This document shows, one piece after another, positions 2,943 through 40,938 of a DNA stretch of 64,000 nucleotides; position 1 is the first letter of the stretch, and each line of letters starts with the position of its first letter. The stretch is taken from positions 16,997-80,996 of the forward strand of contig CAZJKC010000001.1 in assembly GCA_964546565.1 (NCBI GenBank). Direction: 5' to 3'. The notes under the pieces were generated by a model, which saw only the letters and a list, made by a program, of their open reading frames with translations, searched no databases and was not told the origin of the DNA. The position numbers and the translations under genes were made by a program. This stretch comes from an uncultured Staphylococcaceae bacterium (GTDB lineage Bacteria > Bacillota_I > Bacilli_A > RFN20 > CAG-826).

Positions 2943-4175
2943 ATGAACTTATATAAAAGAGAAGAATACTTAAAAAGAATAAGAGGATTTTATCATGATA
3001 CAGACATTATAAAAGTAATCACTGGTGTTAGAAGATGCGGAAAGTCATCTATAATGCTTATGATAATTGAAGAAATATTAAAAAGTGGAATAAGTAAGGA
3101 GAATTGTATTTTCATTGACTTAGATAGTAGAAAATACAGCAAAGTGAAAACTGATAAAGCTCTAGAAGAACTATTAGATTCATTTTCAAATATTAATGGA
3201 ACTAAATATGTTTTTATCGATGAAATACAAAATATTAAAAATTATGAAGAAGTTATTAATGCTTTTAGGAATGATGGAGATTATTCAATATTTATTACAG
3301 GATCTAATTCATATTTATTAAGTGGGGAATTAATAACAAAACTTACGGGAAGATATATTGAATTTGAAATATTTACATTATCATTTTATGAATATTTAGA
3401 GATGAAGAAGTTTTTTAATAAACCAGTTGATTCTAATATATTAAATGAATTAAACAATTATATTATTGAAGGTGGATTCCCCAAAGCTATACAATATGAT
3501 TCAATTATAGACAAAAGATCTTATACTAAAGCTACTGTTACTGAAATTATTGAAAAAGATATAAAAAAAAGAGTCAAAATTAGAACTATAGAAGCATTTA
3601 ATTTAGTTATGAATTTTATAATTAATAATTATGGACAAACAATGAGTGTTTTGAGCATTCAAAAAGGACTAGAAAATGCCGGTATTAAAGTAAAACGAGA
3701 AACTATATCTAAATATATTGAAATCTTAGTAAATGCTAAAATAATTTATCAATGTGATAGATTTGATATGAAAAGTAAACGTTCATTAAAAGGTGAGAAA
3801 AAATATTATTTAGCAGATTCGTCATTTTATTATTCCATGAACACTGATAATAGAATAAATTATGGTCCTGCCTTAGAAAATGTAATATACACATATGCAA
3901 GAAGTAAAAGATACACTGTAAGTGTTGGAAGAATTGGATTACTCGAATGTGATTTTATATTAAGAGATAATTATTTAAACTATTCATATTTACAAGTTGC
4001 ATATACAATCTTAGAAAGTAAAAAAACTGAAGATAGAGAATATATTCCTTTAGAATTAATTAAAGATAATTATCCTAAATATGTGCTAACAACTGATCTT
4101 TTAATTCAAAAACGTAATGGTATTATTCACGCTAATATTGCAGAATTTACAAGAAACAATCTTAATTTTAATTAG
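2943..4175 (+). CDS. COG1373-type AAA ATPase (AAA_14 + C-terminal DUF4143 domain)
   Basis: Walker A GVRRCGKS and Walker B VFIDEIQ. Very AT-rich gene (~22% GC). The start is probably the ATG at 2943 (SD GGAGTGA at 2932-2938) rather than the GTG at 2925. Confidence 0.75.
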   Translation: MNLYKREEYLKRIRGFYHDTDIIKVITGVRRCGKSSIMLMIIEEILKSGISKENCIFIDLDSRKYSKVKTDKALEELLDSFSNINGTKYVFIDEIQNIKNYEEVINAFRNDGDYSIFITGSNSYLLSGELITKLTGRYIEFEIFTLSFYEYLEMKKFFNKPVDSNILNELNNYIIEGGFPKAIQYDSIIDKRSYTKATVTEIIEKDIKKRVKIRTIEAFNLVMNFIINNYGQTMSVLSIQKGLENAGIKVKRETISKYIEILVNAKIIYQCDRFDMKSKRSLKGEKKYYLADSSFYYSMNTDNRINYGPALENVIYTYARSKRYTVSVGRIGLLECDFILRDNYLNYSYLQVAYTILESKKTEDREYIPLELIKDNYPKYVLTTDLLIQKRNGIIHANIAEFTRNNLNFN

Positions 4176-4524
4176 ACATAATATAAAATTGCAAATTAAA
4201 TGAGAACAATAATTGCAAAATAACTAAGAAAAAAAGTAAGAAACAATTAATAATTTGCAAATTAAATTACAAAAAGAAAAATAATTAGTGACACAAGATT
4301 AATAGTAGAGCCAACTATTTTAATAATAAAGATTTTTTTAATTTCAAATTCAAATTGCATAATGATTAGATGTAATTGTTATGTCATTGTCATCAAAAAC
4401 ATGTTTATTTTACGATGCTTTTTTAATACAATATTTATATAATTTGTTTAAGAAGACATTATATATTAATTTTTGAACTTTAAATAAAGTCTTTCTACCT
4501 AATTATTTTGTGAGGTGTTTTTTA

Positions 4525-33342: not shown

Positions 33343-33876
33343 TTAATCTTTTTTATTTGGTGAGGTTTTATTATCTAAGTAATTAGGATTAACATTCATT
33401 ACTATTTCTTCATCCATATCACTTTCTATTTCATCATCATCTTTGCAATCAACAGTTACTATTGCAGAAGCAAACGCATCAATAATATAATCACTTTCTA
33501 TTTTTATTTCTACCGTATGGTCATCCTTCAAAGCCATTCCGATTGCAGATGGATATTTTATAACGTGAACTTTAAAGAATATATCATCGTCAATCGTTTT
33601 CAATTTTCTCCATGACATTTGGCATTGACCAAAAAAAGGAATAGTTTCATTATAAACATTCGTTTTTTGATCATTATCTGTCGCATACCACAATTGAATA
33701 TCATATTGTCCTTTAATGACAACATTCTTTTTACTTTCTTCTGTTGTATATTGATGATTAATAATCCAACATCCTAATGTCTTACTAGCAGCTTCTGGCA
33801 AGGACAAAGTTTTTGTTTCATAGCCCAAATATTTCCCTTTGCCAATCATTGTTTTAACAATTATATCGCGATACAA
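33343..33876 (-). CDS. cotE: outer spore coat morphogenetic protein CotE
   Basis: Matches B. subtilis CotE motifs (GCWIINHQY vs GGWIINHKY) and has an acidic C-terminal tail. Located next to mutS as in B. subtilis. Start likely TTG at 33876 after SD GAGGTG. Confidence 0.8.
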   Translation of the reverse strand: MYRDIIVKTMIGKGKYLGYETKTLSLPEAASKTLGCWIINHQYTTEESKKNVVIKGQYDIQLWYATDNDQKTNVYNETIPFFGQCQMSWRKLKTIDDDIFFKVHVIKYPSAIGMALKDDHTVEIKIESDYIIDAFASAIVTVDCKDDDEIESDMDEEIVMNVNPNYLDNKTSPNKKD

Positions 33877-34198
33877 ATAAATCACCTCACTATAAATATA
33901 TGAAAGTTTAAAGCATATTATTTATATAATTTATTTATCATAATAACGTTTGAATATTTAATAAGATATTAACAAAAGCGTTTTCATCATAAACATCGAT
34001 TTAATTATGATAAAATATATTATGTGGAGGATAAAAGAAAAAAAGAAACTAAATCAAACTATAAAAATAGTTTAATTAAATAAAGATAACTTTTATCTTT
34101 TAGCAGTTTCTTTTTTAGGTATCTTTATATCATGCGATATAAACATTCTCATAAAATGTTTAAGAGGCTCGGCAAAGCCGTGTCCTATGGAGGAAATT

Positions 34199-36376
34199 AT
34201 GAAAAAAAACATCAGTAAAAAAATATTATTTATCAGTTTTTTAGCGCTTTTATTACCAGTAGGATGCGCAAAGAAAGGTAATAATAATCCTAATGGGGTC
34301 GATATTGCTAAAATACTACTAGCTAATGAAAGATTAAGTGACGATGATTTAAGTGGGAACATTTTTACTTCTGGAAAAAAAGCATTTAATCAAATAAAAA
34401 ATGCGGTAGAAAAATATAATCAAAAAGCAAAAGCCAACAATATAAAATACTCTTTTAATAAGAGCGGCAATAGATATACTTGGAATAATGCGCCAAGTTA
34501 TTCTAATTTCTTATCTTATTTCTATAGTTATTCCGCTAATATCGAGCACAATGCTACACGTGGATCATCATTGATAGATTTCACCAAATCATCAATTCAA
34601 ACTATTGACAAATGGATTAAAATAGATAGCAACAATGAAATGTTATTAACAGTTGATAAAGATAGTGAAACAATCATGTCGCGCTCTAAAAATCAATACG
34701 AAATATGTCGTCGTTATCAAAATGATTTAGGTCAAAACACATTTGAAATGTTTATCGCAAATAGTGAAACTAATTCTCAAAGCAGAATGACTTATATTCC
34801 AAATTTAAGATATGAATACACCTCTATTCAAGATGATGTATTACTTGTAATTATCGCCAATAAAGATAAAGGATATTGGGATATCATGTCCACCGATTAT
34901 AATTCTAGTCTTATCGATAAATCAATGACATTTTCCAACTTTGTCATGAAAGATGAAGCAATATATGAAACATCTTACTCCCTATCACAATACGATGATT
35001 TTATCGATGATTATTATGGACCGATAAAGTTAATTAGTTCAGACGGACAAAATGACTTATTAAGTATAGATAGCAACTACGTTTCTATATATACAACCGG
35101 TATAAACAATTTAGATTGTTTTTATATCGATGTCGAAGATAGCGAAATAGGTAATGCTTCAACTGTTGAAAATAGAGAAGATTACAAAATATTATATATC
35201 GGTGAAGGTGATGAAAAATCATATTTCACTGATGATAATAGTGAAGTTATCGCTAAATTCGCTACCGGAAAAGAACTAAAAAAAGGCGATATATTGTATC
35301 AAAATGACATCACCGTAGAAGGAACGTGCATTAATCCGATAGGTGATATCGACTTCTATGGAGAAATTACTTTGTCATTTGTCAACGATGAAATTGATTT
35401 TATTACTGATAGTCTTAAAAAACTTATGGATGACTATGATTTTACCTTTAAAGATAATTATGAAGTTATCAAAAATGCGTTAAGATTCGCCAAACAAGAT
35501 TCATTGGATTTCAGTGAATATTATCTATGGCAAGGAAGCCACATCAATAACTTTACCGATATCGATAAATCTATACAAATAGAAAAAGATTTGATTGAAA
35601 GCTTCGCTAATTTATATACAAATTACAAAGATAATCCCGTAATTAATAATAGTAATCAATGGAGTATTGACGATTCTTATAACTTTGCTAATTTAAACAT
35701 AATATCAAAAGGAGATATTTCTAATTCGGATTCCGAAATTAATATAAGCAATATTGTCGTCGAAATGGAAAACACATCACTTTTATCAAATAATACCGAC
35801 TATCAAATATGCTTTGCCTTTGCCAAAGAACAAGATAACAAGTATTCTAATTTATATACTTTAGACTTTGATAATCCTATTACCAAAGAATATGTTTACG
35901 ATAGCCTTTCAAATAGCAAAAAATTTGAATTATCGCAAAATGCAACAATAAGAATTCCTTTTTTAGAAGAAGGCTCCTATGTCTTAGTAGCGTATATAGC
36001 CACAGCAGATGATGGCATTAGAGTTTCTAATCCCATTAGCATTGGTGGATCTATTAAAGAAAACACAAAAATGGGCGAAGGATTGATTAATGTTTTAGCA
36101 AACGGAGAAGATAATAAAATATGTTTGACTTCCATTAAAACCGCGACAATAAACATTTATTTAGAGAACACTTATGATTATGAAGAATTATATTTGCTAT
36201 TGGAATCATACGCATATAAATATGGTACAACTTCAGGAGATAATATCGAAAAAGATAATAATTCTAATTGGGAAAGTATTGATAGCAACTCCGTAATTGA
36301 AGAAGGAACATATAGATTAAAATATTATAATAATAGTTTTGAAACCGATTCATACATTATAGCCTCTATTGTATAG
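34199..36376 (+). CDS. large surface lipoprotein (~725 aa), unknown function
   Basis: Signal peptide plus lipobox (LLPVGC). Asn/Asp/Ser-rich extracellular protein. Confidence 0.65.
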   Translation: MKKNISKKILFISFLALLLPVGCAKKGNNNPNGVDIAKILLANERLSDDDLSGNIFTSGKKAFNQIKNAVEKYNQKAKANNIKYSFNKSGNRYTWNNAPSYSNFLSYFYSYSANIEHNATRGSSLIDFTKSSIQTIDKWIKIDSNNEMLLTVDKDSETIMSRSKNQYEICRRYQNDLGQNTFEMFIANSETNSQSRMTYIPNLRYEYTSIQDDVLLVIIANKDKGYWDIMSTDYNSSLIDKSMTFSNFVMKDEAIYETSYSLSQYDDFIDDYYGPIKLISSDGQNDLLSIDSNYVSIYTTGINNLDCFYIDVEDSEIGNASTVENREDYKILYIGEGDEKSYFTDDNSEVIAKFATGKELKKGDILYQNDITVEGTCINPIGDIDFYGEITLSFVNDEIDFITDSLKKLMDDYDFTFKDNYEVIKNALRFAKQDSLDFSEYYLWQGSHINNFTDIDKSIQIEKDLIESFANLYTNYKDNPVINNSNQWSIDDSYNFANLNIISKGDISNSDSEINISNIVVEMENTSLLSNNTDYQICFAFAKEQDNKYSNLYTLDFDNPITKEYVYDSLSNSKKFELSQNATIRIPFLEEGSYVLVAYIATADDGIRVSNPISIGGSIKENTKMGEGLINVLANGEDNKICLTSIKTATINIYLENTYDYEELYLLLESYAYKYGTTSGDNIEKDNNSNWESIDSNSVIEEGTYRLKYYNNSFETDSYIIASIV

Positions 36377-36540
36377 CGTTATTAAGACTTTCAATGTTTT
36401 TATTACATAGTTCCATTTTTCTTATCTAATTTATTTTGCAATTATGAGCTTTATTTAATGCACTATTCTATAAATCACTAACAAAAAAAGATGTTATAAA
36501 TACCATATTTTCCCTTTTTTTGATATTTCTATCAACTAGT

Positions 36541-36568
36541 AAAAAAGCGCGATTTAATGCGCTTTTTT
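36541..36568. terminator. bidirectional rho-independent terminator between convergent surface-protein genes
   Basis: AAGCGC-gatttaat-GCGCTT hairpin flanked by A6 and T6. Confidence 0.75.
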
Positions 36569-36657
36569 CATTATTTTCTTACTCTTCTTTTAAATTATTC
36601 TTCCAAAGATAAAATTTTTTAAAATATCTTAATTCCCCTTTTTAAGTTTTATAAGAT

Positions 36658-38949
36658 TTATTCTTTACTATAGCCCCATACAACTGGAATGCGTTTATAA
36701 TCAGAATAATTTGAATTAATAACTTTTATATTCCATGAGAAATGCCATGTACTAGGTTGTACTTCCATTTCACAATATATCGTTAATGAATAACATAATT
36801 TAAAAGCTCCAAATCCTATATAAAAGACATTTTTATGTATATATACATTTTTTAAATGTGTACATTTTGAAAAAGCATAATCACAAATGATGTAAGTATT
36901 CTCATTTATATCAAATGACTCTATATCTGTATTTTTAATATCTACTAAACATAAATATGGATTATTATCACTTCCTATATAATAAGCATCATTGTCCTCA
37001 TTATATTGAAGATTGTTACAGTTATAAAAGACATTTTGCCCAAATGAAGTTAAGTTATTTGACAAAGTTACGTGTGTTAATGATTCACAAGCATTAAAAG
37101 CTCCATCACCTATATAAGTAACATTGTTAGGAATTGTAATTTCAGTTAATGATTCACATTTATAAAAAGACCTATTATAAATGTATCGTGTATTTTCATT
37201 AATAATACATGAAGTTATTTCTTGATCTTTGGATTCAATTAACCATAAAAATGGATTATCATCATTGCCTAAATAATAAGCATTATCATATTCAGTAAAG
37301 TTCAGTGATACGCAATCTATAAATACTCCATAACCTAAAGATGAAACACTAGAAGGAATAGTAATATTTGTTAAGGAAGTACAACCATCAAACGCTTGCA
37401 TTCCTATAGATATAACGCTATCGGGGATAATAATGCTTGTTAATGAACTACAATCATAAAATGCTCCTGCGAGAATAACGGATGTTTTTGGATTGATATT
37501 ACATGAAGTTATATTAGTACTTGCTTTTACCAAGCACACAAATGGATTATCATCATTGCCTAAATAAGAAGCGTTATCGTATTCATTATATTCAAGATTA
37601 TAACATTTACTAAAAGCATGAAGCCCTATAGAAGTAACATTACTAGAAATACTAATCTTTTTTAATTGTTCACAATCACTAAAAGCATAATCACCAATAG
37701 AAGTTACACTTTCGGGAAGAGAGATAGAAACGATATTTTTAAACCCATAGAATTGATATACACCAATATTTTTAATACCATCAGGAATTACAATTTCACT
37801 TAATTCTTGATATTTACCATCAACATTAAGATAAAAATGAGAAGCATACGCCATAGGATTTGATGTTTCATAAATAAGTCCATTAGGTCCGCTATCATAA
37901 TTACTGGTATAATAATAAGTATCACTAAAGCGAATGTTACACCAATCTTCTATAGTCCCATCATAATATACATTTTCTAAAGAATTACATATTTGAAATG
38001 CACGATCACCAATTGATTTAACGCTACTAGAAAAAGTAATATCAGTCAAATGCATACAACCTGCAAATGCACCAGAACCTAAAGATGAAACACTAGAAGG
38101 AATTTCAACACTTGTTAATGGACACCAATTGAATGCACCGCTACCAATTGAAGTAACACTATTAGGTATTTTAACACTTGCAATATTTGTATGTACAAAA
38201 GACCAATCACCAATAGCTGTTACTTTATATTTCTTTTTAAATGAAATCGTACTTGGAATGACAATATCAGTGTTTATATCTATATCATAGTACTTCATAT
38301 ATTTTGTGAGAACAAAACTATCATCTATCAATGCATAACAACAGCCATTCTTTTCAATTGTTAATAACCTTTCTTTATTAACATCCCAATAAAATGGTAA
38401 TGTTATAGAATTACCCGTGATAGTAATTTCTCCATCAATAATTCCCATTGACATAGATGCATCCCATCCATGTGACAATTCATAAGTATCTTTTCCACCT
38501 TCACAAAAAACGGTTAAAGAATTACAACACATAAAAGCAGATCCACCTATCGAAATATTTTTAGGAATAATTATTGTTTTAAGATTAATACACTTTAAAA
38601 ATGCTCCAGTCATAATTTGTTTAATGTTTGAATCATCCGAAAATGAAACACATTCAAGATTATCACATTCAGCAAATGCTTTTTTTCCAATAGCTTCTAC
38701 TTTTTTATTGTCGTGTATAGCGGGTATTTGAATTTTATTTATTGATTTATCCTTCATACCAGTAACAATATAGCTATCGCCCGTTTCCGATAAAGTGTAT
38801 TCTAATGCATTATCAGTTAAGCTTTCAATATTATTAGGTAGATCACTCATACTATAAATAATATTATTCGATTCATTTGGTGTACACGATGATAAAAAAG
38901 CACCAAAAAGCAAAAAAACAAAAACACCTTTTTTTATTATTTTCTTCAT
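36658..38949 (-). CDS. BspA-type leucine-rich-repeat (LRR_5) surface lipoprotein
   Basis: Lipobox LSSC. Many repeats of the ...SV/IxxIGxxAFxxCxxLxxIxIP... type. Confidence 0.8.
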   Translation of the reverse strand: MKKIIKKGVFVFLLFGAFLSSCTPNESNNIIYSMSDLPNNIESLTDNALEYTLSETGDSYIVTGMKDKSINKIQIPAIHDNKKVEAIGKKAFAECDNLECVSFSDDSNIKQIMTGAFLKCINLKTIIIPKNISIGGSAFMCCNSLTVFCEGGKDTYELSHGWDASMSMGIIDGEITITGNSITLPFYWDVNKERLLTIEKNGCCYALIDDSFVLTKYMKYYDIDINTDIVIPSTISFKKKYKVTAIGDWSFVHTNIASVKIPNSVTSIGSGAFNWCPLTSVEIPSSVSSLGSGAFAGCMHLTDITFSSSVKSIGDRAFQICNSLENVYYDGTIEDWCNIRFSDTYYYTSNYDSGPNGLIYETSNPMAYASHFYLNVDGKYQELSEIVIPDGIKNIGVYQFYGFKNIVSISLPESVTSIGDYAFSDCEQLKKISISSNVTSIGLHAFSKCYNLEYNEYDNASYLGNDDNPFVCLVKASTNITSCNINPKTSVILAGAFYDCSSLTSIIIPDSVISIGMQAFDGCTSLTNITIPSSVSSLGYGVFIDCVSLNFTEYDNAYYLGNDDNPFLWLIESKDQEITSCIINENTRYIYNRSFYKCESLTEITIPNNVTYIGDGAFNACESLTHVTLSNNLTSFGQNVFYNCNNLQYNEDNDAYYIGSDNNPYLCLVDIKNTDIESFDINENTYIICDYAFSKCTHLKNVYIHKNVFYIGFGAFKLCYSLTIYCEMEVQPSTWHFSWNIKVINSNYSDYKRIPVVWGYSKE

Positions 38950-38995
38950 AAAAAAATCCTCTCCTCAAAATTTTTTTAATGTTTTTACAATATAC

Positions 38996-39027
38996 ATTGT
39001 AACCCCCCCCCCCCCATGCTATGTCAA
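38996..39027 (-). promoter_or_regulatory. sigma-A-type promoter of the LRR gene with a G13 tract in the spacer
   Basis: Minus strand reads TTGACA (39027-39022), a 20-nt spacer containing G13 (39015-39003), then TACAAT (39001-38996). SD GGAGAGGA follows before the ATG at 38949. Confidence 0.7.
39003..39015. repeat. homopolymeric C13/G13 tract
   Basis: 13 consecutive C on the plus strand in a ~30% GC genome. Confidence 0.95.
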
Positions 39028-39091
39028 GCAATTTTGTAGTGTGTAGTGCTATTAATAAAGTAGACACTAAGGGGGTAAAAGTAGACACAAA

Positions 39092-39117
39092 AAAGAGGAT
39101 TTGGTAAAGTCCTCTTT
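39092..39117 (-). terminator. rho-independent terminator ending the DUF3990/DUF3791 operon
   Basis: AAAGAGGA/TCCTCTTT 8-bp stem. T-run on the minus strand. Confidence 0.6.
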
Positions 39118-39230
39118 GTTTTAAACTGGCATCATAATCCTGTCATATATATTGCCTTTTTATGATTTTTTTTCATATGTAATAGATTCTAATGCTATTA
39201 GGTTAGTAAAAGCATTATATCTGATTCTTT

Positions 39231-39437
39231 TTATGCGTTTATACGAGCTTCGATATATAAGTCAATATCATTGATAATATATTTATGTCCTGTGGTGTGT
39301 AATACATCGTAAAAAGTATCAAGATAATCAAATACTTTATACTTTTCAAATAGTTCTTGGGTCATAATGCCTGTCATACCTTTTTCGGCTTTATACATTT
39401 CAAAGCAAAAGGTTTTGAATTGTAATGTTTTACTCAT
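39231..39437 (-). CDS. DUF3791-family small protein
   Basis: 68 aa with a YDVLHTTGxxYIxxDIDxYI motif, matching recalled DUF3791 conservation. Last gene of the module. Confidence 0.55.
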   Translation of the reverse strand: MSKTLQFKTFCFEMYKAEKGMTGIMTQELFEKYKVFDYLDTFYDVLHTTGHKYIINDIDLYIEARINA

Positions 39438-39438
39438 A

Positions 39439-39672
39439 TTATACCTCCGGGAATTCTAATTTTCCCTTCATTTCTCTGTCGAATAATTCAACAATCATTT
39501 CCGAACTATATTGCCACACTTTTGTATCTTCTTTTTCAAGTGCCATATAAAGTTCTGATTTATGAAACAAGGACATAGCCTTATCTTCATCTAATCCATA
39601 TTTGTCCATTATCTTGCTGATTATATCAGAAGTCATCATAGCCATTAAAGTTGAAAACCTATCTTTATTCAT
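39439..39672 (-). CDS. DUF3791-like small helical protein
   Basis: 77 aa, 1-nt spacing to neighbours. Helical, typical companion of DUF3990. Confidence 0.5.
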   Translation of the reverse strand: MNKDRFSTLMAMMTSDIISKIMDKYGLDEDKAMSLFHKSELYMALEKEDTKVWQYSSEMIVELFDREMKGKLEFPEV

Positions 39673-40152
39673 TTATTTTTCCTCCACCCCAATAAACTTT
39701 AAATATGTTAAAGACTTTTCAGTATGAAATAACACTTGATTATAAAGTTCCTCAACCTTTAATCTCTTTAATGTTTCTTCCAAATCGTAAATGCCGATTT
39801 CATAAAGTCTAACAACTTCATAAACTCCATCATCGGCAACAGGGCCTATGACAATATCATATGTTTCTTGGCATTGTCCCTTGCGGTTTCCAGAAATAAA
39901 ATCCAACCACTCCTTATCCGCTTTATCAAAAAGAATAATCTTTAATTCAGATTCTGCTTTTTCAATATCGAAGTCATACATTGAAATATATCCGATATTT
40001 GTTTCTTTTCTGTTTTTTTGTTTTTCAGTCCATTTAATGGCTTGTTCTTCATTCATTGTAGTATAAAAGCCATAACCAAAATCTAAATATCTGTCACTAA
40101 CTCTAATTTCTGGCCTTTCCACAACAACAAGACTACCATGATATACTTTCAT
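39673..40152 (-). CDS. DUF3990-family protein; candidate ADP-ribosyltransferase-fold enzyme (H-Y-E type)
   Basis: Motifs VYHGS (H5), FGYGFYTT (Y30) and GVYEVV (E112) parallel the PARP/Tpt1 HGS, GxGxYFA and Y-E motifs. 4-nt overlap (ATGA) with the upstream gene. Confidence 0.55.
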   Translation of the reverse strand: MKVYHGSLVVVERPEIRVSDRYLDFGYGFYTTMNEEQAIKWTEKQKNRKETNIGYISMYDFDIEKAESELKIILFDKADKEWLDFISGNRKGQCQETYDIVIGPVADDGVYEVVRLYEIGIYDLEETLKRLKVEELYNQVLFHTEKSLTYLKFIGVEEK

Positions 40153-40454
40153 ACGATGGCCTCCATTTTCCTAATCTTTACTTGCTCTGCTTTTAATTCT
40201 TTGACAAGCTTCTCAACAACCTTTCGTCTTTCAAGCTGTTCCGCAATAAGAGCTATATTTTCTTCATTCATGCCGATATATTTTGCACAAACCTTTTTTC
40301 CATCTCTATATTTCAAATAATAGTATGTGTTAGCTTTTGTAATTTTAGGCGTTATCTTCCCTTTAGGTAAGAGCGATAATTCCTTTTCGTATCTCTCTAG
40401 CATATATTCATTTCGTTTTCTTTCATCCTCTAAAATAGAATAAATTAACTGCAT
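40149..40454 (-). CDS. hypothetical coiled-coil protein, first gene of the DUF3990 module
   Basis: SD GGTGAGGTG. TATAAT -10 at 40478-40473. Lys/Glu-rich. Confidence 0.45.
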   Translation of the reverse strand: MQLIYSILEDERKRNEYMLERYEKELSLLPKGKITPKITKANTYYYLKYRDGKKVCAKYIGMNEENIALIAEQLERRKVVEKLVKELKAEQVKIRKMEAIV

Positions 40455-40629
40455 TGTCATCACCTCACCATTATTATACTCTACATAAATGATTTTTTAA
40501 CTTTTTTTGTTGAACATTTTTGAAAATATATAGAAGTTTTGAAATCCCTATTAATAAGTTGTGACTCAAAATAAAAAAGGCTCTTTAATTTGCGTTTAAC
40601 ACACAAAAATCAAAGAAACCTTTAGCGTT

Positions 40630-40938
40630 TTATTTTTCAATAATATATTTTATTTGCTCTAATAATTCATATACTTGTTCATGAATTATTTCCATATTTT
40701 TAATTAAAGGATGATTATCATATTGCTTTTTTAAATCTAAATATTCTTGATACAATTCAAGATATTCCTTATCTTCACGATGAATAGTCATTTGTCGTTG
40801 ATAATACTGAATTTGTTTCATCAATGAATGAAGTTCTTGACTGTTCTTTATTTGTTCTTTTAATTGAAAATAACATTTAACTTCTTGACAATTCATTAAC
40901 AATTGTTGACATTCGTTTAAAGTTTCTTCAATTGTCAT
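40630..40938 (-). CDS. ricA: YlbF/YmcA-family regulator (RicA-like)
   Basis: ~100-aa helical protein immediately downstream of miaB, as ymcA is with ymcB in B. subtilis. Confidence 0.6.
   Translation of the reverse strand: MTIEETLNECQQLLMNCQEVKCYFQLKEQIKNSQELHSLMKQIQYYQRQMTIHREDKEYLELYQEYLDLKKQYDNHPLIKNMEIIHEQVYELLEQIKYIIEK

Follow-up and report, generated by a model that had tools for sequence, protein, structure and literature searches.

With each toxin of the ADP-ribosyltransferase (ART) fold, such as DarT, ParT, MbcT and CmdT, a new target chemistry has come to light. The H-Y-[EDQ] clade of this fold is defined by motif I (Hx[ST] on β1), motif II (Tyr on β2) and motif III ([EDQ] at the front of β5), which in PARP1 are HGS, YFA and YNE, and Pfam's ART clan already includes the DUF3990 family (PMC7955679). 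In Serratia and Enterobacter, Rhs proteins of the T6SS also carry DUF3990 as their C-terminal toxin domain (PMC4524185, PMC10763514). The three-gene set of DUF3990, a small protein and DUF3791 is the PADLOC candidate PDC-M13, and the PDC systems as a class are predictions drawn from genes that lie inside BREX, DISARM and type I RM loci. In rumen MAGs alone PDC-M13 has been counted 3,324 times (PMC13356809). The literature we searched contains no experiment on any member of a DUF3990/DUF3791 cassette and no phage-defence validation of PDC-M13, in agreement with the preliminary description of the present locus, which had noted that the function of this family pair was not experimentally established. 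With 3,153 clusters at 50% identity DUF3990 is a large family, common in the genomes and plasmids of gut, rumen and clostridial bacteria, and still biochemically blank.

Here we analyse a DUF3990 locus in a window of 64,000 nucleotides (the whole stretch of DNA studied) from an uncultured Staphylococcaceae bacterium. On balance we lean towards reading the locus as a horizontally mobile toxin-antitoxin-type cassette, serving addiction or abortive infection, in which an NAD+-dependent ART-fold toxin is paired with a two-part partner. Its features are as follows.

40528-39143, minus strand: extent of the mobile cassette, by blastn the sole stretch of the window with 83-88% DNA homology to the closest relatives
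40500-40473, minus strand: predicted sigma-70-type promoter, with TATAAT at 40478-40473, a 16-nt spacer and a weak -35 element, TTAAAA, at 40500-40495
40454-40149, minus strand: gene 1, 101 aa from ATG 40454, or 104 aa if read from GTG 40463
40152-39673, minus strand: gene 2, the DUF3990 protein, 159 aa
39672-39439, minus strand: gene 3, a helical partner of 77 aa without a Pfam family, matching PADLOC PDC-M13B
39437-39231, minus strand: gene 4, the DUF3791 partner, 68 aa, matching PADLOC PDC-M13C
39222-39184, minus strand: 3' UTR hairpin directly past the final stop codon, from RNA folding
39117-39089, minus strand: terminator-like hairpin, AAAGAGGA-N10-TCCTCTTT, with an 8-bp stem and a 10-nt loop, then a T run

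The four small open reading frames first described (104, 159, 77 and 68 aa, joined by ATGA, 0-nt and 1-nt junctions) were recovered from the window sequence: genes 1 and 2 share a 4-nt ATGA overlap, genes 2 and 3 abut with 0 nt between them, 1 nt separates genes 3 and 4, and GGAGG or GAGGTG lies 6-8 nt ahead of every start codon. Gene 1 likely starts at ATG 40454 rather than GTG 40463, since this is the start chosen by gene callers in relatives and the one with the best Shine-Dalgarno spacing. The tight arrangement is beyond chance, as the same genes, order and junctions recur in 68-76 of 80 related loci from many phyla. The module was also said to have its own promoter and terminator, and both were located. 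For the promoter, the scan matched 10 of 12 consensus positions, and close relatives have a canonical TTGACA at the same -35 place, bracketed by an inverted repeat (TCTACAA...TTGTAGA) that forms a perfect 12-13-bp palindrome in one of them (L002), the window copy being degenerate. For the terminator, the consensus scanner made no call on the hairpin at 39117-39089 because its loop is 10 nt long; the entire 166-nt 3' region folds with z = -3.05. In the alignment of the 3' UTR hairpin the core ATATAA..TTAACTAACC..AA is kept and changes in the arms preserve pairing. We rejected this motif as a family-wide element, as it is confined to the closest cassette relatives. One promoter would serve all four genes, probably via coupled translation, and a single promoter, overlapping or abutting genes and residence on mobile and plasmid DNA together give the compact operon organization of a type II-like toxin-antitoxin module.

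The closest relatives of the cassette occupy other chromosomal sites, flanked by aspS and P-II-DUF1538 genes, versus ymcA and BspA-LRR in the window. The cassette therefore moves as a unit of about 1.35 kb, a finding that is new here. It is carried on 88 plasmids, likewise a new finding, among them C. botulinum plasmids of 17-23 kb where it adjoins rep, and this plasmid and mobile-cassette distribution, together with the PADLOC candidate status, fits the toxin-antitoxin or defence role proposed in the preliminary description. Around the 80 closest related loci, to which all locus counts below refer, no neighbouring family exceeded 6 of 80, as fits a selfish or defence element, and we found no recombinase and no consistent defence island or known defence-gene partner; an HsdS gene or fragment adjoins the cassette, or is fused, in some relatives.

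What does accompany the DUF3990 gene with great regularity is its two small partners. A gene of the 77-aa type lies directly downstream of it in 68 of the 80 loci and DUF3791 is present in 76, across Bacillota, Bacteroidota, Spirochaetota, Planctomycetota, Thermotogota and one archaeon. The gene order is permuted, with DUF3990-77-aa-DUF3791, DUF3791-DUF3990-77-aa and 77-aa-DUF3791-DUF3990 all seen, and the components are also found fused in each pairwise combination: the 77-aa protein at the C-terminus of DUF3990 (P0160, P0263 and P0244), DUF3791 on the N-terminus of DUF3990 (P0191), and the 77-aa protein with DUF3791 as a 149-aa protein on a B. fragilis plasmid. This co-occurrence, together with the permuted orders and the three pairwise fusions, is new here, and suggests from gene content that the DUF3990 enzyme works with two obligatory partners. 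The window's 68-aa protein matches DUF3791 (PF12668) with E 4.2e-17 and 62 bits (cut-off 25) over the full profile, positions 1-60 of 60. In neither partner did we recognize a DNA-binding or antitoxin fold, a solved relative or a match to HTH_Xre. Compared by hhalign as possible paralogues, the two gave P values of 0.014 and 0.29, and weak DUF3791 matches occur in 3 of 24 members of the 77-aa family.

Gene 1 is less regular. Its type is found upstream of DUF3990, with the same -4 overlap, in 26 of the 80 loci, and it has no PADLOC match. The window protein has no Pfam DUF6788 match; 4 of 6 relatives match this family at sub-cut-off levels (E 7e-4 to 0.07, below 27.2 bits), and most homologues carry precomputed DUF6788 annotations. 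The AF2 model (pLDDT 92) places a helix at 2-28, a three-strand sheet at 33-61 and a helix at 64-100. We regard gene 1 as a probable optional extra beside the three core genes, perhaps with a regulatory or adaptor role.

The 159-aa product of gene 2 matches Pfam DUF3990 (PF13151) with E 2.1e-48 and 164 bits (cut-off 32.2), residues 1-153 aligning to profile positions 1-152, and its exact sequence returned no record on look-up. Most of the 150 best DUF3990 representatives are likewise stand-alone proteins of about 160 aa. The three motifs first noted in it are present as described: MKVYHGS spans residues 1-7, FGYGFYTT residues 25-32 and GVYEVV residues 109-114. From these an H-Y-E triad had been proposed, of which the first two members are supported and the third is not. 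Among 122 diverse relatives, the sample for all motif conservation given here, H5 is conserved in 94%, G6 in 91% and S7 in 77%, and in the predicted model the three sit in strand 1 (residues 2-7). Y30 is conserved in 98%, is invariant in alignment A4 and lies in strand 2 (29-32). E112 is kept in 10% of relatives, with A, R and P commoner, and is located within helix 108-118 rather than at a strand edge, and neither observation supports it as the catalytic glutamate. By strand order the residue that would take its place is Q139 of a 'YNQ' motif, which is 97% conserved and starts the penultimate core strand (137-142) of the predicted model; on strand position and conservation it reads as the motif III residue. 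With E112 unconserved and Q139 conserved at the leading edge of the penultimate strand, we read the DUF3990 family as H-Y-Q within the H-Y-[EDQ] clade, its probable triad being H5-Y30-Q139. The active-site candidates are thus corrected to H5, Y30 and Q139, along with D99, D108 and R90, and away from E112. Profile comparison bears on the first two residues: an hhalign comparison of the family profile with the PARP1 catalytic domain (E 0.05, not significant) could position the H and Y motifs alone, pairing H5-G-S with PARP1 H862-G-S and Y30 with PARP1 Y896 in a weak alignment. Aligning the C-terminal part separately yielded two placements that contradict each other, neither of them significant, and motif III is therefore not fixable from sequence.

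In the explanation we favour, the product of gene 2 would be a minimal H-Y-[EDQ] ART that binds NAD+ and transfers ADP-ribose onto an essential cellular or phage macromolecule, leading to growth arrest, while the products of genes 3 and 4 would act together as a two-part partner, bound directly to the enzyme and holding it inactive until it is freed by a trigger, for instance turnover of the partner, infection by a phage or the loss of the element itself. Direct binding of toxin and partner is indirectly supported by the three types of fusion and the strict co-occurrence, which come from gene comparisons. Weighing against this explanation, neither partner has a recognizable DNA-binding or antitoxin fold, and known defence genes are not consistent neighbours of the cassette. 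In PARP1 and diphtheria toxin, an E-to-Q change strongly lowers transferase activity. With a Gln as the third triad residue the DUF3990 enzyme may therefore be weak, substrate-assisted or directed at a phosphate nucleophile, or it may be an NADase. A bolder form of the same explanation, which we hold only tentatively, is that the cassette, with or without the gene 1 protein, is a distinct tripartite ART system of immunity or addiction, in which the H-Y-Q enzyme modifies nucleic acid and the two small proteins form a heterodimer acting as both inhibitor and infection sensor; with a base or a terminal phosphate as acceptor, the enzyme could do without a catalytic Glu.

The structural evidence brings in a second and rather improbable reading, in which the DUF3990 protein depletes NAD+ (as an NADase or NAD+ phosphorylase, like MbcT and Xre-RES) rather than modifying a macromolecule, with the logic of the cassette unchanged. 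The predicted model shows the split β-sheet of the ART fold, and structural searches, among them the Foldseek search for ART and Tpt1 folds proposed in the preliminary description, returned such neighbours, the nearest being the RES-domain toxins ParT, MbcT, Xre-RES (Foldseek E 2e-3, probability 1.0), NatT and VPA0770, with PARP4 (by Foldseek), Tpt1 and Arr also among the matches. Q139 in the place of a catalytic Glu would likewise disfavour classical transfer. Against this, neither the window protein nor any of 106 relatives gave a RES Pfam match at E <= 1, the RES signature is absent, and the conserved motifs (HGS, GxGFY and YNQ) are of PARP and diphtheria-toxin type. The sequence links lead in the same direction, with weak Pfam ART-PolyVal matches in 48 of 106 diverse DUF3990 members and weak PARP matches in 5 of 106, and ParT is itself a protein ADP-ribosyltransferase (PDB 6d0h title). 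When solved structures were searched by sequence, neither the protein itself nor profiles A1 and A4 returned anything meaningful or a solved close relative, and PHROGs gave no significant matches.

Slightly less probable again is a non-toxin role, with the three proteins forming a stable holo-enzyme or pseudo-enzyme of non-lethal function, such as Tpt1-like phosphate-end processing, Arr-like modification of small molecules or sensing of NAD+ or ADP-ribose, and the small proteins serving as specificity or regulatory subunits. Covalent fusions occur in nature among all three components, and enzyme-partner fusions are as compatible with a permanent holo-enzyme as with a toxin-antitoxin pair. The Gln at motif III and the presence of Tpt1 and Arr among the structural matches also agree with such a role, toxicity being so far inferred only. 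However, a patchy spread over distant phyla, a 1.35-kb unit entering unrelated sites, carriage beside rep on small plasmids, use of the domain as an Rhs C-terminal toxin and recovery by 'guilt by embedding' in RM and BREX loci are all hallmarks of selfish or defence elements rather than of housekeeping enzymes. That the enzyme is instead an offensive or counter-defence factor, which benefits a plasmid or phage by modifying components of the host or a competitor, as ART domains in the polyvalent proteins of phages and conjugative elements do, rather than protecting the host, is very unlikely, given that just 7 of 50,697 phage records carry the DUF3990 cassette, that the 159-aa protein stands alone and lacks a delivery domain, that its ART-PolyVal similarity is confined to the N-terminal 45 or so residues, and that a protein always paired with two small partners shows the pattern of self-protection.

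Were the tripartite nucleic-acid-ART reading true, the cassette would represent a major uncharacterized arm of ADP-ribosylation-based defence, since few candidate systems are as frequent in gut and rumen anaerobes as this family. The corrected active-site residues, the defined set of partners and the minimal unit of about 1.35 kb make the system directly testable.

Compared with known systems, the likeness to the RES-Xre modules (ParST, MbcTA and Xre-RES) is one of fold only, with 8-10% identity to the DUF3990 protein, and whereas those modules use an Xre/COG5642 antitoxin, the DUF3990 protein has two tiny helical partners that are usually downstream. The PARP1 motifs HGS, GKGIYFA and YNE parallel HGS, GxGFY and YNQ in DUF3990, the sequence similarity alone being below significance, but PARP and diphtheria-toxin ARTs have a catalytic Glu where the DUF3990 protein has Gln, and the latter is minimal at 159 aa and without accessory domains. 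In S. marcescens Rhs5 and E. bugandensis RhsA the same Pfam domain occupies the toxin position and is followed by a small immunity gene (PMC4524185; PMC10763514), although in these Rhs toxins a delivery region precedes the domain, while the window protein begins at domain residue 1 and lacks any Rhs or PAAR part. The closest functional analogy is the anti-phage system CmdTAC, which also consists of three proteins, an ART toxin whose release is under the control of two partners that are not enzymes (PMC11618068). CmdTAC employs a SecB-like chaperone, whereas the partners here are helical proteins of 68-77 aa that are sometimes fused to the enzyme; we found no DarTG or CmdTAC homology, macrodomain antitoxin or SecB-like chaperone, and no PADLOC or Pfam match other than to PDC and DUF3990. 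The cassette is not a new kind of system, as its fold assignment and its status as a defence candidate are already in public databases; belonging to a catalogued candidate toxin-antitoxin or anti-phage family, it is a sound lead. The family is that of PADLOC PDC-M13, whose A, B and C models genes 2, 3 and 4 match in order (E 2.2e-61, 6.5e-20 and 4.1e-27), and the window copy differs in lying outside any RM or BREX locus and in having an extra upstream DUF6788-like gene for which PADLOC has no model.

The 159-aa protein is a full-length member of the DUF3990 family (PF13151, E 2.1e-48) and the 68-aa protein a full-length DUF3791 (PF12668, E 4.2e-17), with no Pfam family recovered above threshold for the accompanying 77-aa and 104-aa proteins. 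Genes 2, 3 and 4, which encode the DUF3990, 77-aa and DUF3791 proteins, matched models A, B and C of PDC-M13 in PADLOC-DB (E 2e-61, 6.5e-20 and 4e-27), and gene 1 had no match there. The PDC are 145 candidate systems drawn from genes that lie within BREX, DISARM and type I RM loci (bioRxiv 10.1101/2024.01.29.577857), termed 'unvalidated' in a later study, and DUF3990 sits in Pfam's ART clan (PMC7955679). In the literature searched no activity is reported for DUF3990, DUF3791, DUF6788 or PDC-M13. The locus is a catalogued but uncharacterised DUF3990/DUF3791 (PDC-M13) member, and most of the insight of the preliminary description was already on record in Pfam and PADLOC; what is added here is a corrected active-site hypothesis, evidence that three proteins form an obligatory unit, and a delimited 1.35-kb mobile cassette. 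On balance we lean towards this cassette being a toxin-antitoxin-type module in which an H-Y-Q ART toxin that uses NAD+ is accompanied by a bipartite partner and an optional DUF6788-like component.

The operon anatomy and the three sequence motifs had been described correctly, and the features concerned are as follows.

39231-40463, minus strand: four consecutive ORFs of 104, 159, 77 and 68 aa, read from the sequence
40500-40473, minus strand: promoter-like site (TTAAAA, 16 nt, TATAAT) directly upstream of the ORFs
39117-39089, minus strand: 8-bp hairpin then a T run, ~110 nt past the last stop

Successive junctions of the four ORFs are a 4-nt ATGA overlap, then 0 nt and then 1 nt, and inspection placed a Shine-Dalgarno sequence (GGAGG or GAGGTG) 6-8 nt 5' of all four start codons; one promoter and coupled translation would serve all cassette genes. 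Gene 1 most likely starts at ATG 40454, giving 101 aa, since this is the start called in close relatives. The cassette promoters of four such relatives (loci L001, L002, L081 and L083) have a canonical TTGACA at -35, and there an inverted repeat, TCTACAA...TTGTAGA, brackets the -35 and abuts the -10 (12-13 bp perfect in L002, ~3625-3680); we regard this repeat as a candidate operator. The window copy (40473-40530) has a degenerate repeat and TTAAAA at -35, pointing to decay of both operator and promoter, or to reduced expression. Another hairpin (39184-39222, minus strand) directly follows the stop codon of DUF3791; it has the conserved core ATATAA..TTAACTAACC..AA and arm changes that preserve pairing, and is common to the closest cassette relatives only (L001, L002, L081-83) and absent in more distant loci.

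We compared 80 related loci, taken from one-genome-per-species contigs, out of at least 574 that exist, with hosts in the Bacillota, Bacteroidota, Spirochaetota, Planctomycetota, Fibrobacterota and Thermotogota as well as Victivallis and one methanogenic archaeon. The 77-aa gene lies 3' of DUF3990 in 68 of the 80 and DUF3791 does so in 76, the neighbouring genes overlapping or abutting. Permuted orders occur on the C. botulinum plasmid pCLI (DUF3791, DUF3990, 77-aa) and in some Bacteroidota (77-aa, DUF3791, DUF3990). Every pairwise fusion of the three was found: DUF3990 with the 77-aa protein (P0160, P0263 and P0244), DUF3791 with DUF3990 (P0191), and the 77-aa protein with DUF3791 (a 149-aa protein of a B. 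fragilis plasmid). Linkage, permuted orders and the three fusion types together provide strong comparative evidence that DUF3990, the 77-aa protein and DUF3791 would form one physical unit. No solved relative of either small protein was found, and the two might be distant paralogues of each other. Locus L031 carries two DUF3990 copies (1895-2365 and 3162-3635) either side of the two small genes, and in L048 the small genes are 5' of DUF3990. An HsdS-like gene is directly 5' in L055, and the DUF3990 protein P0154 is fused to an HsdS fragment, arrangements in keeping with a location inside type I RM loci. Gene 1, a sub-threshold DUF6788 relative, is accessory, given that a homologue (with a -4 overlap) is present in 26/80 loci; it is modelled (pLDDT 92) as a long hairpin of helices with a three-stranded sheet at the tip, and we can only guess that it serves as a regulator or adaptor.

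Searching the PDB by sequence alone found nothing for the 159-aa protein or its family. An AlphaFold2 model built with 48 homologues was confident (pLDDT 92.3, pTM 0.86), with strands at 2-7, 29-32, 55-61, 72-74, 100-105, 137-142 and 151-158 and helices between. Its structural relatives, with their scores, are an insecticidal ART (7.9), PARP4 (7.7), exotoxin A (7.5), diphtheria toxin (7.0), Tpt1 (6.5) and DarT (4.9), and among Rhs toxins RhsP2 (6.4) and TreX (6.0). An independent Foldseek comparison put the Xre-RES toxin at the top (E 2e-3, probability 1.0), followed by PARP4 (E 1.3e-2). These structural matches, together with weak Pfam matches to ART-PolyVal in 48/106 and to PARP in 5/106 diverse family members, restricted to the H and Y motifs of the N-terminal part, support the ART fold that had been proposed. 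The protein might instead deplete NAD+ in the manner of the RES toxins, whose fold resembles its own; the locus does not qualify as a RES member, and we consider this reading unlikely.

Conservation was computed over 122 diverse relatives of 35-58% identity.

H5 94%, G6 91%, P14 92%, D24 97%
F25, G26, G28 and F29 93-97%, Y30 98%, T32 92%
Q37 91%, A38 93%, F75 96%, W82 99%, R90 99%
D99 100%, G103 99%, A106 98%, D108 94%, Q139 97%

The H-Y-[EDQ] clade is defined by Hx[ST] on beta-1, Y on beta-2 and [EDQ] at the front edge of beta-5. In the model H5 is on strand 1 and Y30 on strand 2, the positions required of motifs I and II, and a weak profile alignment with the verified PARP1 catalytic domain (E 0.05) pairs them with H862 and Y896. 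The ART-like H and Y motifs of the preliminary description therefore hold, as does its toxin-antitoxin or defence-like architecture, but its catalytic Glu, E112, is wrong: this residue is 10% conserved and lies inside helix 108-118, and we rejected it as motif III. Q139, in 'L-Y-N-Q-V-L-F', is conserved at the front of the penultimate core strand, from which, by strand order and conservation, we infer motif III and read the family as probably H-Y-Q; motif III of PARP1 is 'YNE', and the Q139 region gives no significant sequence alignment with PARP1. Judged by spacing, S904 and Y907 of PARP1 may have their counterparts in Q37 and the aromatic residue (W or F) at position 41. Our caution over classical transferase chemistry stems chiefly from the Gln at motif III, a permitted variant in the clade. 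That the set is a non-toxic holo-enzyme or pseudo-enzyme we consider unlikely.

The window shares DNA homology (83-88%) with its closest relatives over 39143-40528 only, a stretch running from the promoter through the four genes into a short 3' UTR. The cassette has moved as a unit between unlike sites, lying between aspS and a P-II/DUF1538 operon in these relatives and, in the window, with ymcA/ylbF on one side and a BspA-type LRR lipoprotein gene on the other. There the array ymdB-spoVS-miaB-ymcA-//-cotE-mutS(-mutL) is interrupted within 33343-40938 (mutL itself is outside the scan), three unrelated accessory units splitting ymcA from cotE: the cassette, a 763-aa BspA-LRR lipoprotein and a 729-aa plus-strand ORF (34187-36376) that has no Pfam match. 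That the array is conserved is an assumption we make from B. subtilis gene order. Across the 80 loci no neighbour family is held in common and no recombinase accompanies the cassette. Plasmids that carry the family number 88; among them are C. botulinum plasmids of 17-23 kb, on which it adjoins rep, as well as plasmids of C. tetani and conjugative plasmids of Bacteroides. On one of the last (B. fragilis, CP103245.1, locus L087) a zeta-toxin family fragment at 4247-4462 lies ~270 bp 3' of the DUF3990 gene, and the pair looks like a small addiction-type gene cluster. Beside the window cassette, 5' of the lipoprotein gene (36658-38949), a 13-G run (39015-39003, minus strand) sits between a perfect TTGACA (39027-39022) and TACAAT (39001-38996) with a 20-nt spacer; 38996-39027 is laid out like a classic phase-variable promoter, in which slipped-strand changes in a homopolymer do the switching, and would be weak or off at the present tract length. 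DUF3990 also occurs in T6SS Rhs proteins, as the C-terminal domain where the toxin sits (PMC4524185, PMC10763514). That the protein is an offensive factor of mobile elements, related to ART-PolyVal, is highly improbable; the family is present in only 7/50,697 phage records.

The fold, motifs, gene linkage, fusions and mobility are demonstrated by these comparisons. In the toxin-antitoxin-type module that we favour, gene 2 would encode the H-Y-Q ART toxin, its NAD+ use, toxicity and target all presumed. The 77-aa protein and DUF3791 would act as a bipartite inhibitory or sensing partner, with neutralisation and trigger likewise putative, and the DUF6788-like gene 1 product would be an optional component. 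The motifs of the presumed toxin resemble those of PARP and diphtheria toxin-type ARTs. The locus is no more a member of DarTG, CmdTAC or Rhs than of RES, and its nearest architectural analogy is CmdTAC (PMC11618068), in which an ART toxin is joined by two non-enzymatic partners.
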